DNA from: an uncultured Gammaproteobacteria bacterium
GTDB lineage: Bacteria > Patescibacteriota > Microgenomatia > CAYQLK01
Length of the DNA: 64,000 bases
Direction: 5' to 3'
Assembly: GCA_964404855.1 (NCBI GenBank)
Contig: CAYOLO010000001.1
Location: forward strand, 30,245 to 94,244
The notes under the pieces were generated by a model, which was not told where the DNA came from, searched no databases, and was given only the letters and a program-made list of their open reading frames with translations. Made by a program: the position numbers and the translations under genes. Shown one piece after another: positions 50,642 to 64,000 of this stretch. Numbering within the stretch: position 1 is the stretch's first letter; the number at the start of each line of letters is the position of its first letter.

Positions 50642-51814
50642 ATGTCAAAACTTACTCTTTCTACAGATCAACAAACCGTTCTTGACCAAGTTATGGCCTG
50701 GATAGATGCCCCAGTTGGGGATTATTTAACAATTGGCGGTTATGCTGGAACAGGAAAGACAACCTTAACGGCTTTTATTAGGCAAGAAATTTTTAACAAG
50801 GCGCCTCTGCTCAAAATTGCCTTTTGCTCATACACTGGCAAAGCTGCGCGAAACTTGGAAGAAAAACTTAAAGAAAATAAAGCGATTTTTTCAGGAGATT
50901 CTGTGTCTACAATTCATTCTCTTATTTATACGGCAATTACCAATAAGCAAGGCAACATCACTGGATGGAAAAGAAGAGATTTTATGGACGCGGACTTAAT
51001 AATTGTTGATGAGGCGTCGATGGTCGACCCTTTTATACTTAATGATTTGCTTAGTTACGAAGTGCCGATTGTTGCAGTTGGGGATCACGGGCAACTTCCG
51101 CCAATTGGAACTAATTATTCTTTGATGCAAAGCCCGCATCTTACTTTGACCCAGATTCATAGACAGGAGGAAGATAGTCCGATTATTGATGTTTCGATTT
51201 TGGCAAGAACGAGTGGGGAGATTCCTGTTCAAAAATTTGGAACGGGTGTAATAAAAATATCGCGTAATGATCCAGACTCTAGAGAAATATTGAATGAGGC
51301 TTTGGAGAGTTTCAATGAAGAGACTTTGATTATCTGCGGATACAATGCGACAAGATTAAGACTTAATAAAGAATTAAGAGCCAGAAAAGATAGATATGGA
51401 GATGTGCCAGAAGCAGGTGATAGAGTAGTGGCTCTGAAAAATAATCACTACTCGGGTATTCATAATGGAGCAGTCGGTACTATTACAAAAATATTAGAAG
51501 AGGACAAAACTGGTAATTGGTTATTGGTCAAAATAGATATTGATGGACAAGATAAACCTTATCAAGGATATATTTATAAACCGCAGTTTAATCAGAAGGA
51601 AACAATAATTGGTAACCTTAAAGATCCTGATGGACATCAAGGAGATTTGTTTGATTTTGGTTATGCCTTAACTGTTCACAAAGCTCAAGGTTCTCAAGCA
51701 GACTCGGTAATACTTTTTGAGGAAAGGTTTCCAAAATCTTCCGATGAAGAGTGGCGAAGATGGTTGTATACGGCAGTGACTAGGGCCAAACAGAATTTGT
51801 TGATTGTGGGGTAA
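50642..51814 (+). CDS. SF1 RecD/Dda-like ATP-dependent DNA helicase (short, 390 aa)
   Basis: Walker A GYAGTGKTT, Walker B IIVDEASMVD, VGDHGQLPP, and C-terminal ALTVHKAQGSQADSVILF. Confidence 0.7.
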   Translation: MSKLTLSTDQQTVLDQVMAWIDAPVGDYLTIGGYAGTGKTTLTAFIRQEIFNKAPLLKIAFCSYTGKAARNLEEKLKENKAIFSGDSVSTIHSLIYTAITNKQGNITGWKRRDFMDADLIIVDEASMVDPFILNDLLSYEVPIVAVGDHGQLPPIGTNYSLMQSPHLTLTQIHRQEEDSPIIDVSILARTSGEIPVQKFGTGVIKISRNDPDSREILNEALESFNEETLIICGYNATRLRLNKELRARKDRYGDVPEAGDRVVALKNNHYSGIHNGAVGTITKILEEDKTGNWLLVKIDIDGQDKPYQGYIYKPQFNQKETIIGNLKDPDGHQGDLFDFGYALTVHKAQGSQADSVILFEERFPKSSDEEWRRWLYTAVTRAKQNLLIVG

Positions 51815-58790: not shown

Positions 58791-58862
58791 AAAGGGAGAG
58801 GGAAAGGAGGGAATTTATTTGCTTAGGCAATAAGTCTGAAATAATGATACTATTGGCGCCTT

Positions 58863-59414
58863 ATGAGAAACTTTGATCGCGACAACAATTCTGGTGGAAG
58901 AAGAGATTTTGGCAGACGCGATTTTGGCGGAGACCGCAACCGCGAACGACCACAAATGCACGAAGCAATTTGTGACTCTTGCGGCAAAACATGCCAACTC
59001 CCCTTCAGACCAAGTGGTGACAGGCCAGTTTATTGCAGCGACTGTTTTGCCAAAAATCATGGTGCTGAACCACGAAGAAATTTTGACCGTAACGAGAGAA
59101 GAGATGATAGAGGTGGAAACAGACCTCCTTTTAGGAAGTTTGATAACGACTCAAGTGGCAAATCTTTAAGAAAACTTCAGTTCGAAGCACTTGATGCGAA
59201 ATTGGACAAAATCCTTGCCCTACTCTCGGCTAATAACACAGTTGTTACTAAGCCAGTCGTAGTTCCTGCTCCAAAGAAAAAATCCGAACCAAAAGCTAAA
59301 CCTGTTGTAGAAACAGCGCCTGAAGTGGCTGTTACAGAACCGGAAATAGTTACAACCGAGCCGGAAGTAATTACAGAAGTTGTTGAGAAAAAGAAAAGAG
59401 TAGCTAAAAAATAA
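58863..59414 (+). CDS. Zn-ribbon (CxxC...CxxC) protein with Arg/Asp/Gly-rich repeats (RRDFG) and Lys-rich C-terminus; possible nucleic-acid-binding protein
   Basis: CDSCGKTCQLPF...PVYCSDCFAKNH and repeated RRDFGRRDFGGDRNRER. Confidence 0.4.
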   Translation: MRNFDRDNNSGGRRDFGRRDFGGDRNRERPQMHEAICDSCGKTCQLPFRPSGDRPVYCSDCFAKNHGAEPRRNFDRNERRDDRGGNRPPFRKFDNDSSGKSLRKLQFEALDAKLDKILALLSANNTVVTKPVVVPAPKKKSEPKAKPVVETAPEVAVTEPEIVTTEPEVITEVVEKKKRVAKK

Positions 59415-59440
59415 TCTAGCTAACGTAAAGTGAATACAAT

Positions 59441-62400
59441 TTAAGTATTCAAAAAAACTACATCTCTGTAGTGTTCGTAAACAAAGTTATACACCTCATT
59501 GCCTTTTATCTCGCAATCTTTTTCCGTGTAAGTTGGTTCAGGAAGGTAGCTGTATAAGATATCTGATATCGTTGTTCTAACGCCAGCGCGTGCAATTTCT
59601 TTTTCTCTCCAATCAATAACAAGTTTTTCTTCTTTAAGTTTTGCTAAAAGTTCCTTTGATGTTTTCTTTACCCTGTCTCGTTCGTCTGGATTTAATTGAT
59701 CTTTTTTTAGAAGATCAAAAATTGCAAGTTCTTCTTCTGTAAGATTCTCCTTCACAGATCTTTGTTCTTCTTCGGACAACTCCTTGGCAAGTTCTACGAG
59801 ATCATCAAAGAGTTGATCAATATCATGAGCTCCACTGTTATACATATCTAAAAGTTTAGTAAAGCGCTCCATGAATCTTGCACGCATTTTATTTTTCTTT
59901 ATCATTTCAGTAATCTTTTTTTCGATCTCATCTTTGAGTGCTTCGACCTGAAGATTTTTATTCTCGAGTTTATAGAAAAAATCATGTAATGCATCTGCAT
60001 CAAGTAGGCTCAAGTCCTTTAATCTCTTGTACTGTGGAATTACATATTCTCCAGCTTGAATCGACTTGTCTAGCAATTTTTCAAGATCTCTTTTTACAGG
60101 GGAAGTATCAAAACTTTTCAAACCAATATCTCTAACTCTAGAAGCTATTACGCGAACAGCAGTCACTTCCTCGTAGTAATCTTCCGCATCAGGATCCGGA
60201 AGCACTGCCTGGTAAGCATTATAAAGATCTGAAGATAAATTTAAGAAATCCTTTTTTGTCTCACTGTTTTCGAGGAGCTTATTAGCATAGCTTTCTATAA
60301 GAAGTAATTTTTGTTCACTTGGAGACTCTAGGAGAATAGATATTTCAATTGAAAATTTCTTTAAAAATTCTTTTGTTTGTTTCAAGATATCGTTAAGCTC
60401 AACTAATAACTCTTCTTTATCTTTTATAATTTCGTCATCATCTGTTTTTGTAGATGCATACAGAGCGAGTGCTTTTTCAACATTCTTAAACACACCGATA
60501 TAATCAACAATTATTCCGTTAGTTTTTCCTTCCGCGACTCTATTAGCCCTGGCAATTGTTTGCATAAGAGTATGGTTCTTAAGTGGTTTATCAAGATATA
60601 AAGTAGAAAGTGTGGGTACATCAAACCCCGTAAGCCACATTGCACAGACAAACGCTATTTTTAGATTACTATCGCTTTTTTTGAATTCTTCTTCAAGATC
60701 TTCTTTCTGAATCCTGCTTCTGATTTTTCTCATGTCAATATCAAACGGCTCAAGATCTGCAATTTCATTTTGTGATTGAGAGACTACAACTGCCATGTCA
60801 ACTTTTTCGAGTTTTTCAATCTCATCTTGAATTTTTCCTTGCTGATATTCATCGTCCGTTCTTGATAGATCTAATCTTAATTTATCAAGGTGTCTATCCC
60901 ATTCCTTTTTTACTTTTATATACATACGAACTGCAGTTTTTTTGTCTATTGATACAACCATTGCCTTACCGTCATAGCCTCGACCTATAAAGTGCTGAAC
61001 AATATCCCGTGCAATAGCATTTAGCCTGTCTTCACGAGTTATTAGGTGGTATGCAGTTGAAAATTCTTGCTCCACTTTTTCCTCTTCTTCATCATTCAAG
61101 TCGTAATAATCCATGATTTCAGAAAGATCTTTTTCAAGATCTGGATTTACATTCTCAAGTTTTGCAACTCTGTTTTCATAGAATAGCCGGACTGTCGCAC
61201 CATCTTTAACGGATTGACCGAAGTTATAAACTGAAACATATTCGCCAAAAGTATTTCTAGTTTTTTCCTCGCCATGGGCAAGTAGTGGAGTACCAGTAAA
61301 ACCAATAAATGAAGCGTTAGGCAATGCCTTTCTCATGTTCTGTGCATAGGTATCGTATTGGCTCCTGTGAGCCTCATCAGTCATAACTATGACGTTATCT
61401 CTATCTGATACAGATCCGGCAATATCCTGGAACTTCTGAATAGTGGTGAAGATTTGACGGTGATCTTCCGTGAGTAGTTGTTTTAAATCTTTAATTGAAT
61501 CTGCGCGAACATGTTTTTCGTAGACAGCACCAACATTTGCAAAGTTCTTGTATGCTTGACCATCGAGCTGTTCACGATCTGTAACAACAATAAATGTAAA
61601 GTTACCTGTAATTTTGCGAAAGACCTTTTGAGAAAGGTAAACCATAGCAAATGATTTACCTGAACCTTGTGTATGCCAAAATACCCCTAGCTTTCCGTCT
61701 AGTTCGCGTCTTTTTAATACTCGATCAAATGCTCGATTGACTCCGTAGAACTGAAAGTATCTTGGAACTATTTTCTTTATTTCTCCGAGTGATTCGTCAA
61801 AAAGAATAAAGTTTTCGAAAATATCAAGCATCCTGTTCTTGTCGCAAATACCAGAGATTATTGTTGGTAAATCTGTCTTTGCTGGATCATCTTCACTTGC
61901 GACCTTTTTCCATTCGTTGAAGTATTCAAATGGGGAAGTAAGAGAGCCAAACTTATTTTCAATGCCATTTGAAATAACAATTCCACAGTTGTACCAGAAG
62001 AGTTGAGGGATTGTGTCTTTGTAGTCGCGGATATTATCTCTGTATGCATCAACAAGACTTTTATGAGAAGCTTTCAACTCCAAAAGCATCAGAGGAATTC
62101 CATTGACGAACAGCACTACATCGGGTCGTCTTGTATGCATTTCTCCTACAACCCAAAATTGCGAAACGCATAAGAAATTATTATTGTCCGGGGTTTCAAA
62201 ATCAAAAAACTTTACAGTTTCAGTCTTTGTATTTCCTTCATTGGTTTTTATGTTTACGCTATATCCATCTTTCAATAATTTATATACATCCTGGTTAGCA
62301 CGAACCAGAGTATTATTTGATCTGTCGCGAGTTAACTCGTTTATTGCTTGCTCGAGTGCATCTTCAGGAATTGATGGATTAATTTTCTGGAGAGCCGGAA

Positions 62401-62566
62401 GTAGATATTTCTTAAGGATAACTTCACCCCTGTTATCACGTCCAAGGATCGCATCGTCCTCGTCTTTAAATGCATTTACATGACAATCCTCATCATTCCA
62501 GATTTGCTTGATGAGTTTTATTGCTGTCTGTTCAACTAAATTGTCTTCGTTAAATTGATTGCTCAT
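59441..62566 (-). CDS. hsdR: type I restriction enzyme R subunit (HsdR)
   Basis: N-terminal PD-(D/E)xK-like PDVVLFVNGIPLMLLELK. SF2 motifs HTQGSGKS and DEAH. 1041 aa. No hsdM or hsdS in the window. Confidence 0.85.
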   Translation of the reverse strand: MSNQFNEDNLVEQTAIKLIKQIWNDEDCHVNAFKDEDDAILGRDNRGEVILKKYLLPALQKINPSIPEDALEQAINELTRDRSNNTLVRANQDVYKLLKDGYSVNIKTNEGNTKTETVKFFDFETPDNNNFLCVSQFWVVGEMHTRRPDVVLFVNGIPLMLLELKASHKSLVDAYRDNIRDYKDTIPQLFWYNCGIVISNGIENKFGSLTSPFEYFNEWKKVASEDDPAKTDLPTIISGICDKNRMLDIFENFILFDESLGEIKKIVPRYFQFYGVNRAFDRVLKRRELDGKLGVFWHTQGSGKSFAMVYLSQKVFRKITGNFTFIVVTDREQLDGQAYKNFANVGAVYEKHVRADSIKDLKQLLTEDHRQIFTTIQKFQDIAGSVSDRDNVIVMTDEAHRSQYDTYAQNMRKALPNASFIGFTGTPLLAHGEEKTRNTFGEYVSVYNFGQSVKDGATVRLFYENRVAKLENVNPDLEKDLSEIMDYYDLNDEEEEKVEQEFSTAYHLITREDRLNAIARDIVQHFIGRGYDGKAMVVSIDKKTAVRMYIKVKKEWDRHLDKLRLDLSRTDDEYQQGKIQDEIEKLEKVDMAVVVSQSQNEIADLEPFDIDMRKIRSRIQKEDLEEEFKKSDSNLKIAFVCAMWLTGFDVPTLSTLYLDKPLKNHTLMQTIARANRVAEGKTNGIIVDYIGVFKNVEKALALYASTKTDDDEIIKDKEELLVELNDILKQTKEFLKKFSIEISILLESPSEQKLLLIESYANKLLENSETKKDFLNLSSDLYNAYQAVLPDPDAEDYYEEVTAVRVIASRVRDIGLKSFDTSPVKRDLEKLLDKSIQAGEYVIPQYKRLKDLSLLDADALHDFFYKLENKNLQVEALKDEIEKKITEMIKKNKMRARFMERFTKLLDMYNSGAHDIDQLFDDLVELAKELSEEEQRSVKENLTEEELAIFDLLKKDQLNPDERDRVKKTSKELLAKLKEEKLVIDWREKEIARAGVRTTISDILYSYLPEPTYTEKDCEIKGNEVYNFVYEHYRDVVFLNT

Positions 62567-62567
62567 T

Positions 62568-63173
62568 TTATTTCTTTCTTATTCTTTTTACCTCAATAGT
62601 TCCATGATTGTTTCTATCTCTTCCTGAATAGTAATAACCTGTTAATGTATCTTCTTTCTCATCATGTATCAGTTTTGCTGAGCCTTCGTGGATAGACATT
62701 GTTTCAGTTGCGTCATAATTCGGCTCGTTTCTGAAAAAGTAAAATAACGCAACTTTATTATCAATTTCACTTCTGCTGAAATTTTCATGGACACTTACTG
62801 ATTTTGATTCTTTGAAAGTACCGCAAATCTTTATTCTGGTCGCAGTTTGCTCAATCTCAAGTTCAGTTTTTATGTCACTCTTAAAATTGTCGTAAGAGGA
62901 TTTTGCAACACCTTCCCAATTACCATTTAGATCATCAGCAATTACAATTCCTATTTTCTTGAAAAAAGATAGTTTCCAAAGATGATTATTAAAAATCCAA
63001 AAAAATATTGAATACACCCCTATGGTGGAAATTGGTAAATCTACATAAAAAGGAATAATTATCTGATTGTGTTTGAGAAATAGAGTGATTGTATAGGATA
63101 TAGCAACACTTATTCCTATAAGTGCCAAAATAAAATATGTAAACTGTCTGTAATTATCGTTGTTTATATTCAT
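62568..63173 (-). CDS. 2-TM membrane effector-like protein (Cap15-like architecture: N-terminal TM pair plus about 130-aa C-terminal soluble domain)
   Basis: TM helices YFILALIGISVAISYTITLFL and ISTIGVYSIFFWIF. 1-nt spacer to the hsdR start and ATGA overlap with the upstream NTase. Confidence 0.4.
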   Translation of the reverse strand: MNINNDNYRQFTYFILALIGISVAISYTITLFLKHNQIIIPFYVDLPISTIGVYSIFFWIFNNHLWKLSFFKKIGIVIADDLNGNWEGVAKSSYDNFKSDIKTELEIEQTATRIKICGTFKESKSVSVHENFSRSEIDNKVALFYFFRNEPNYDATETMSIHEGSAKLIHDEKEDTLTGYYYSGRDRNNHGTIEVKRIRKK

Positions 63174-64000
63174 ATTTTTATTTTCCCAAGATAATAATCT
63201 GCTATTTTGGCCACGTAAACGATCAGATTAGTGCTATTCCATGTATTAGAACTGATCAAAGTATCTTGCTCATTTGCACAAATAAAACCACCTATCCTGC
63301 TTGTCTGAATTGCATCGAAAATAAATTGCAGAGTTTTAAGCATACAATCACCATAATTCCCATCAAAGCATGGACTAGAACAGTTATAAAGTAGATTTTC
63401 AATGAAGTAAGATGGAGCAACATCTTCCTCAAGATCTCCATTCTCGACTAGATTGTTACGCATATTCTTGAAAATCCTAATCATATCTTTGAATTTTCCA
63501 TCCGTGTCAATGTTTTTAGATTCACAATTTTTGAGATGTACCTTGGGGAAATTGATAATTTCTTGACCATTAGATGTGTCGTACAGTTTCATCCCCTCAA
63601 CAAAACTTTGATTATCGTGCGATATAAATCTTTTATATAGCTTGTACTGGATACAAGGAACAACGTCTGCATCTTTTCTGTATGTATTTTCATCAACATT
63701 AATGCACTTATCACCCCAATGTACTTCCCCTGAACCTAGTTCATCGGTAAGCGCCTTAAAAACAGCATCTTTAAAGTGCCTAAAACGATAAGAACTGCTA
63801 CTGTAGGAGATCTCGTGCAGAAGTTTCTCGCCTTCTGTTAATTGAGATTTGTCGGAATAAAAAACAGCATTTAGTTGAACTGCAATATCAACATCGCTAT
63901 CAAATCTTACATTTGTGCTATTTGCATAAGATCCTTGCAGGTAGACCTCATAGCCAAAACTCGAAAGATTATATTCCCTTTTTATTTCAATGACAGGTAG
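63170..64000 (-). CDS. CD-NTase/SMODS-like nucleotidyltransferase (CBASS cyclase-like), 5'-partial (runs off window)
   Basis: pol-beta NTase signature QGSYANSTNVRFDSDVDIAV (GS...T...SDVD) plus a downstream acidic KDADVV. The frame is open to the window edge beyond the Met at 63592. Confidence 0.45.
   Translation of the reverse strand, partial: LPVIEIKREYNLSSFGYEVYLQGSYANSTNVRFDSDVDIAVQLNAVFYSDKSQLTEGEKLLHEISYSSSSYRFRHFKDAVFKALTDELGSGEVHWGDKCINVDENTYRKDADVVPCIQYKLYKRFISHDNQSFVEGMKLYDTSNGQEIINFPKVHLKNCESKNIDTDGKFKDMIRIFKNMRNNLVENGDLEEDVAPSYFIENLLYNCSSPCFDGNYGDCMLKTLQFIFDAIQTSRIGGFICANEQDTLISSNTWNSTNLIVYVAKIADYYLGKIKI

Follow-up and report, generated by a model that had tools for sequence, protein, structure and literature searches.

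The stretch of DNA analysed here (the window: 64,000 nucleotides from contig CAYOLO010000001.1, assembly GCA_964404855.1) ends in three contiguous genes transcribed in the same direction: cdnE, cap15 and hsdR. Sequence profiles identify the first two as a type I CBASS (cyclic-oligonucleotide-based antiphage signalling system), composed of the cyclase CdnE and the membrane effector Cap15; the third codes for the restriction subunit of a type I restriction-modification (R-M) system. The genes and their junctions are listed in Table 1. The cdnE-cap15 pair has no space for a promoter or a terminator of its own.

Table 1. Genes and gene junctions at the end of the window.
Feature	Position (nt)	Strand	Evidence
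cdnE (clade-E CD-NTase, CBASS cyclase; partial)	63170..64000	minus	profiles, PDB matches, catalytic residues
cap15 (two-transmembrane membrane effector, C-terminal cyclic-dinucleotide receptor domain; 201 aa)	62568..63173	minus	Pfam, PADLOC, PDB
hsdR (complete restriction endonuclease/translocase subunit of a type I system; 1041 aa)	59441..62566	minus	TIGR00348, Pfam, motifs
ATGA: cdnE stop TGA overlapping cap15 ATG	63170..63173	minus	direct sequence reading
cap15 TAA + 1 nt + first base of hsdR ATG	62566..62570	minus	sequence; blastn block limits; junction alignment
183-aa zf_Tbcl_2 treble-clef zinc-finger protein	58863..59414	plus	zf_Tbcl_2 7e-18

The window contains the C-terminal 276 of the 312 codons of cdnE, the start codon being located about 108 nt (36 codons) past the window end at 64000. 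The full-length cyclase of the source contig, P0242 (312 aa), was obtained by cluster look-up. The GSYANSTNVRFDSDVDIAV motif is present in the partial nucleotidyltransferase. The PADLOC Cyclase profile PDLC00788 gave an E-value of 2.1e-84. A search with a family profile gave 5.9e-85. The top five PDB matches were all clade-E CD-NTases (cGAS/DncV-like nucleotidyltransferases): RmCdnE (6e0k, 2.1e-44), EfCdnE (3e-37), ClCdnE, LpCdnE and EmCdnE. The NCBIfam model NF053871 ('anti-phage nucleotidyltransferase', DS2_2) was matched at 5.6e-76 with 255.6 bits, which is under its 350-bit equivalog cut-off, partly because 36 cyclase residues are missing from the window. In window numbering the catalytic residues are G23-S24, D36, D38 and D112, and none of them varies among 36 relatives; the relatives carry the CD_NTase_C domain (PF26305).

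A conserved Asn of the cyclase lid aligns to N166 of RmCdnE, the lid residue that reads the uracil acceptor (PMC10442399). Because the equivalent of this Asn is conserved, the product of CdnE probably contains uracil. In the accessory-gene test for type I CBASS, no Cap2/Cap3, HORMA/TRIP13 or other signature genes were found adjoining the pair: hsdR is located directly downstream in the window, and hsdS directly upstream in the colinear locus L115 (see below).

A minimal nucleotidyltransferase (MNT/AbiEii) antitoxin was considered as another identity for this protein and was rejected: the MntA antitoxin profile gave only 0.0037, compared with 2e-84 for the PADLOC cyclase. The Pfam NTP_transf_2 family was matched at just 2e-5. 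On these scores the protein belongs with the CD-NTases and not with the MNT antitoxins or the aminoglycoside nucleotidyltransferases.

The product of cap15 passed both Pfam models for this effector. Cap15_CD_rec was matched at 7e-26 (91.4 bits, cut-off 31.2) with 118 of the 122 profile positions covered, and Cap15_TM at 3.8e-7 (31.1 bits, cut-off 28.2) over residues 20-67. The PADLOC profile for the 2TM CBASS effector gave 2.8e-53 and the crystal structure PDB 7n34 gave 6.9e-6. Kyte-Doolittle hydropathy clearly exceeded 1.6 over residues 11-34; the second helix was weaker. The protein is predicted from these profiles to belong to the Cap15 fold. No additional domain was found on CdnE or on Cap15.

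A preliminary description of this DNA had reported three fused minus-strand genes with an ATGA overlap, a 1-nt spacer and a neighbour on the opposite strand, and had proposed that the first two form a CBASS-like pair tightly coupled to hsdR. Direct reading of the sequence found all these elements in place, and the overlap and the spacer bear out the coupling. The pair is a real CD-NTase + Cap15 module (PADLOC 2e-84, RmCdnE 2e-44, both Pfam Cap15 models), and the comparison of CD-NTase with MNT antitoxin profiles, on which the description had made its proposal depend, favoured the CD-NTase (MntA, 0.0037).

The third gene matched the type I HsdR model TIGR00348 at 4.3e-156, with the Pfam domains HSDR_N, SWI2_SNF2, T1R_D3-like and T1RH-like_C. 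Its motifs are intact: the nuclease D...ELK (163), Walker A QGSGKS (300), DEAH (397) and motif VI QTIARANR (669), with no frameshift in 1041 codons. The protein P0121 is a 100% match to the window HsdR. Relatives of 58-96% identity occur in operons of the form hsdM-hsdS-(cargo)-hsdR, and those with source names belong mostly to Patescibacteria/candidate phyla radiation (CPR) lineages.

Neither hsdM nor hsdS was found in the whole 64-kb window by tblastn with HsdM and HsdS queries of both type I families described below. The operon is transcribed toward lower coordinates, so that any hsdM-hsdS genes would be expected past 64000. A member of the P0242 cluster, P0241, led to the locus L115, which is colinear with the window from 64000 to 60394 at 79% DNA identity; the encoded proteins are 94% (cyclase), 81% (Cap15) and 79% (HsdR) identical to those of the window. 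The gene order in L115 is hsdM (527 aa)-hsdS (421 aa)-cdnE (312 aa)-cap15 (201 aa)-hsdR; adjoining genes overlap by 4 nt at hsdS/cdnE, cdnE/cap15 and cap15/hsdR. A same-strand upstream hsdM was found in 19 of the 19 HsdR relatives (58-90% identical) with long enough upstream DNA, with hsdS beside the slot that precedes hsdR. For L111, whose HsdR is 96% identical, the upstream DNA reaches just hsdS and a short open reading frame (ORF) with similarity to the C-terminus of HsdM.

Since L115 and all 19 of these relatives carry an upstream hsdM, the window hsdR is very probably not an orphan. There is a high probability that its orphan appearance is an artefact of the window edge, and that hsdM and hsdS are located just beyond 64000, a possibility that the preliminary description had itself raised. 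The preliminary description was right that no hsdM or hsdS follows hsdR; its term 'orphan' finds no support. Its placement of the pair in the slot between hsdS and hsdR where PrrC-type genes occur is borne out: judging from the colinearity with L115, the CBASS pair appears to occupy this position.

The content of the slot was compared among operons of the window HsdR family (family B). L111 carries a GajB-like UvrD helicase, L112 (HsdR 90% identical to that of the window) Shedu SduA (1.2e-53), L113 and L114 (89%) a 60-aa ORF followed by an SDH_protease-family protein, and L088 (86%) PDC-S19/DUF3644 (1.6e-144). OLD/AriA/PtuA-like AAA_15 ATPases are found in L091, L092, L095, L096, L103 and L105 (68-72%), and DUF4145-containing proteins in L100 and L109 (63-69%), that of L100 also matching PD-T7-4. 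The slots of L089, L090, L097 and L107 (73-80%) hold proteins without a significant family match. In L101, L102 and L104 (58%) the slot is empty and hsdS directly precedes hsdR. Between the window and these loci, DNA homology is confined to hsdR and ends at its start codon.

Several of these cargo genes are unannotated. The cargo pair of L113 (4272-5349) and L114 (8920-9998) is conserved and consists of the 60-aa ORF and a serine protease of 297 aa (SDH_protease/NfeD-like) for which PADLOC gave no match; the two genes are a candidate embedded defence pair. The unmatched slot proteins (L089:9214-10005, L090:2902-4053, L097:3657-4352 and L107:9394-9996) are 200-383 aa long and gave no significant Pfam or PADLOC match, that of L090 showing a weak HSDR_N_2 match below the cut-off. 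The logic of 'guilt by embedding' makes these proteins candidates for new defence genes. A second cargo position was observed between hsdM and hsdS, where Fic (L113:1879-3060), RhuM (L109:6839-7882), an AAA_14/DUF4143 ATPase (L107:6695-8167) or a 149-aa ORF (L088:7234-7683) is located.

The distribution of the CBASS cassette was analysed in a set of loci that included 80 species-level genome loci, collected by an alignment-based profile search of genome contigs; a scan of the genome contigs with a single Cap15 sequence as query gave no matches, and the alignment query succeeded. The nearest cyclase relatives besides L115 are those of L001-L008, which are 88 (L001), 80, 77-78, 72 and 63% identical to the window cyclase. 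These loci also have the order hsdM-hsdS-cdnE-cap15-hsdR, but their R-M genes belong to another type I family (family A): the HsdR proteins, of 969-978 aa, are 28-31% identical to the window HsdR, and the HsdM proteins, which have an N-terminal MerR-type helix-turn-helix (HTH), are about 28-30% identical to those of family B. DNA homology between the window and L001-L008 spans cdnE-cap15 and ends at the cap15 stop codon, followed by some 20 nt in which the N-terminal codons of hsdR are conserved. The cap15/hsdR junction is the breakpoint between a block of DNA homology belonging to the cassette lineage and a block belonging to the hsdR lineage.

In a neighbour-joining tree the cyclases of the window and L115 nest within the clade of cassettes embedded in family-A operons. 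Four pairs with cyclases of 58-64% identity (L009-L012) are stand-alone and branch outside this clade; their flanking DNA, covering 3.6 kb or more upstream and about 9 kb downstream, has no type I gene. The simplest reading of these data is that the cassette moved from slot to slot between unrelated type I operons.

Two details of the family-A loci were recorded. Although the two HsdR families are otherwise unrelated (28-31% identity), their genes share the DNA sequence of the first eight or so codons (M..FNE...VE), as seen at 62566-62545 of the window and at the start of hsdR in L001-L008; this short shared stretch borders the slot on its downstream side and could provide microhomology for cassette exchange. 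The HsdM proteins of L001 (265-1953), L002 (1047-2729), L003 (6663-8351) and L005 (7134-8828), of 560-564 aa, carry an N-terminal MerR/HTH_17-type domain and may be self-regulating methyltransferases.

CBASS genes were embedded in type I operons in 4 of the 80 loci. In two more, L031 and L060, the pair adjoins R-M genes and is not embedded. L030 (4991-14038; a metagenome-assembled genome, MAG, of Pseudomonadales) has the order hsdM-hsdS-[patatin phospholipase effector (PADLOC 4.5e-158) and CD-NTase]-hsdR, an embedding that is independent of the Cap15 cassette lineage. In L035 (a Ferruginibacter MAG) and L048, both from Chitinophagaceae, the cyclase gene has hsdM on its upstream side and hsdR on its downstream side. 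The genes embedded between hsdM and hsdS of L035 (6706-15822) are a 111-aa ORF and those for an HTH + M78 peptidase fusion resembling CapP/PD-Lambda-2_B, for a CD-NTase, for Cap15 and for an SpbK-like TIR protein (2.6e-26); L048 is similar, and four or five genes are embedded.

Nine of the ten closest species-level genome matches are Patescibacteria, and Patescibacteria/CPR lineages account for about 20 of the 80 loci. These counts contradict the preliminary description, which had called the finding unexpected in a CPR-like organism. The cyclase family is common among Patescibacteria. Abortive-infection CBASS is a frequent possession of these small-genome bacteria, and in many cases it shares one operon with restriction.

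Taken together, these results make it very probable that the locus is the 3' part of an hsdM-hsdS-cdnE-cap15-hsdR operon, in which a self-contained type I CBASS is carried as slot cargo by a complete type I R-M system. The hsdM promoter would drive all five genes, and ribosomes would pass by translational coupling from cdnE to cap15 and on to hsdR. The first line of defence would be the HsdM2S1R2 complex, restricting incoming unmethylated DNA. Infection by a phage that escapes restriction would be sensed by CdnE, which would respond by making a cyclic dinucleotide; the CdnE03-Cap15 system of Staphylococcus schleiferi responds to a structured RNA derived from the phage (PMC10686824). Cap15 proteins combine two transmembrane (TM) segments with a beta-barrel, and binding of the ligand leads to disruption of the inner membrane (PMC10442399). 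Here too, the dinucleotide would bind the beta-barrel, causing oligomerisation, disruption of the inner membrane and abortion of the infection.

The cassette probably arrived by exchange between the hsdS-hsdR slots of different type I operons. CBASS and R-M most likely act independently and are tied just by co-expression and co-inheritance. Three observations favour independence: some relatives stand alone, two unrelated HsdR proteins are tolerated as partners by the cassette, and the slot takes any cargo. Autonomous function of CdnE-Cap15 has precedent (PMC10686824, PMC10442399).

Several points weigh against this interpretation. The hsdM and hsdS genes of this genome are unseen, as the window stops at 64000 and the operon reads toward lower coordinates. 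Co-transcription is suggested by gene spacing alone, the promoter scan (see below) being uninformative. The (R/Q)xW pyrimidine-donor motif reads NTW in the window cyclase and KTW in the family consensus, so that the product cannot be called, and both the nucleotide product and the trigger are drawn from homologues just ~30-46% identical. The single-sequence AlphaFold2 model of Cap15 had a mean predicted local distance difference test (pLDDT) score of 42 and a predicted template-modelling (pTM) score of 0.22, and was unusable for assessing the beta-barrel fold. The cyclase tree carries no support values.

The position of the pair also allows a guard function like that of PrrC. The Stp peptide of T4 frees PrrC from EcoprrI. 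In an analogous arrangement, the type I complex would silence CdnE/Cap15 or have its state read out by the pair, or a restriction product or a stalled HsdR would activate the pair, which would fire when phage anti-restriction disables the enzyme. Such a guard would explain why the pair sits in the PrrC position, tightly coupled to both neighbours, and why the five-gene unit is kept while the cyclase diverges to 63% identity; a single cassette lineage occupies this slot in both of the unrelated type I families, and among the 80 loci there are three or more further cases of CBASS embedded in type I operons (L030, L035 and L048). The stand-alone pairs L009-L012, however, have no type I gene nearby, and the many unrelated cargoes or empty slots fit a recombination hotspot better than a specific partnership. 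The cassette is found beside HsdR proteins sharing just 28-31% identity, which argues against a specific protein interface, and neither CdnE nor Cap15 has an extra domain. The two proteins are a CD-NTase and Cap15, not the ABC-ATPase and anticodon nuclease of PrrC, and CdnE-Cap15 systems protect alone in heterologous hosts (PMC10686824). We therefore consider a guard function unlikely. If it were true, the repeated placement in two type I families would reflect selection for coupling and not just a recombination hotspot.

It is very unlikely that the operon lacks matching hsdM-hsdS genes upstream, for example as a hybrid in which recombination within the cassette joined family-A hsdMS to a family-B hsdR, or through deletion of hsdMS, which would leave a non-functional HsdR next to a working CBASS. 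The DNA upstream of cdnE is unseen, hsdM and hsdS occur nowhere else in the 64 kb, and the locus is mosaic at the cap15/hsdR boundary; as the cyclase of the family-A locus L001 shares 88% identity with that of the window, a family-A upstream half is conceivable. Against this, L115 holds the same cassette (cyclase 94%) with hsdM, hsdS and hsdR all of family B. Every catalytic motif of the window HsdR is intact, without a frameshift in 1041 codons, and the protein is 96% identical to the HsdR of L111, whose gene comes immediately after hsdS and one cargo gene; together the intact sequence and this match argue for continued selection. Inverse signalling of the Panoptes kind, in which a constitutive nucleotide would keep the 2-TM effector off and its depletion by phage sponges would trigger membrane disruption, was found scarcely credible and was rejected for having the wrong cyclase type. 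The 2-TM effectors of Panoptes have been compared with Cap15 (PMC12657218, PMC12657230). The Panoptes cyclase is nevertheless a minimal CRISPR-polymerase (mCpol), whereas the enzyme of this locus is a 312-aa clade-E CD-NTase with CD_NTase_C, and its effector passes the Cap15-specific Pfam models.

Other features of the window were also recorded. The zinc-finger gene downstream of hsdR is on the opposite strand and converges on hsdR across a 26-nt gap; the zinc finger of its product is flanked by low-complexity R/D/G-rich sequence, and related zf_Tbcl genes are found near the R-M operon of L114. A 390-aa RecD/PIF1-like SF1 helicase (AAA_19, AAA_30, UvrD_C_2) is encoded at 50642-51814 on the plus strand, about 8 kb from the defence operon. 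A promoter and terminator scan of 58800-64000 gave counts at or near shuffled expectation (14 promoter-like sequences versus 17.2; 3 terminator-like sequences versus 2.7). In the 64 kb no tRNA genes were found by ARAGORN, and no Rfam families at the gathering threshold. The GC content of cap15 is 30.5%, compared with 37% for the window. This difference does not clearly point to a recent transfer of cap15, since 12% of ordinary 800-nt segments have a GC content of 32.5% or less.

The locus reveals no new mechanism. Its value lies in the slot: in one HsdR family, operons with HsdRs 86-96% identical each carry a different defence cargo, and one lineage of the CBASS cassette has apparently moved, at this site, between type I families that are unrelated. 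The family is thereby a compact natural data set on cassette swapping. Cargo turnover in this family is very high, and several of the unannotated cargo proteins are candidate defence genes.

When compared with known systems, the pair resembles the well-characterised CdnE + Cap15 type I-B CBASS, namely CdnE03-Cap15 of S. schleiferi (PMC10686824), the EfCdnE, ClCdnE and LpCdnE operons (PMC10442399) and the effector structure 7n34. The cyclase gene comes first and the effector gene second, and the clade-E fold family, the GS/DxD/D residues, the lid Asn and the two-TM effector with its receptor domain are shared. The window pair differs in its ~30-46% identity to solved CdnEs, its Patescibacteria-like host, its NTW donor motif and its being spliced into a type I R-M operon, which leaves it no space for a separate promoter or terminator. 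The NF053871 model was built on the cGAS-like gene of DS-2, a DefensePredictor system consisting of a phospholipase, a cGAS-like protein and DAC (10.1101/2025.01.08.631726). The window cyclase matches this DS2_2 model at 5.6e-76; unlike in DS-2, however, the effector is Cap15 and not a phospholipase, and there is no diadenylate cyclase gene.

Defence genes embedded between hsdS and hsdR have been described: PrrC in EcoprrI, DarTG2 in the RRDM island of enteropathogenic E. coli (PMC12255303) and TgvAB in V. cholerae VPI-2 (PMC11411939). The site is a published hotspot (PMC12255303). Such embedding is the basis of the discovery method of Payne et al., 'guilt by embedding', which yielded the PDC candidates (10.1101/2024.01.29.577857). 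PDC-S19, the slot cargo of L088 in the present comparison, is one of the candidates from that study. No paper naming CBASS as cargo of a type I R-M system was found, and 'cbass' is absent from the main text and the 11 supplementary files of the embedding preprint (10.1101/2024.01.29.577857). The window pair is like these embedded genes in its site after hsdS and before hsdR, in its tight integration on the same strand and in the high variability of the cargo among close R-M operons. Unlike the PrrC, DarTG2, TgvAB and PDC cargoes it is a CBASS, and unlike PrrC-EcoprrI the locus gives no evidence of the physical dependence that defines that system. The layered defence locus of the preliminary description is a reasonable reading, but one that falls within the class of embedded hsdS-hsdR defence genes already published (PMC12255303; 10.1101/2024.01.29.577857; PMC11411939). 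The window locus is an instance of that class and not a new one, and it adds CBASS to the cargoes of the type I hsdS-hsdR slot.

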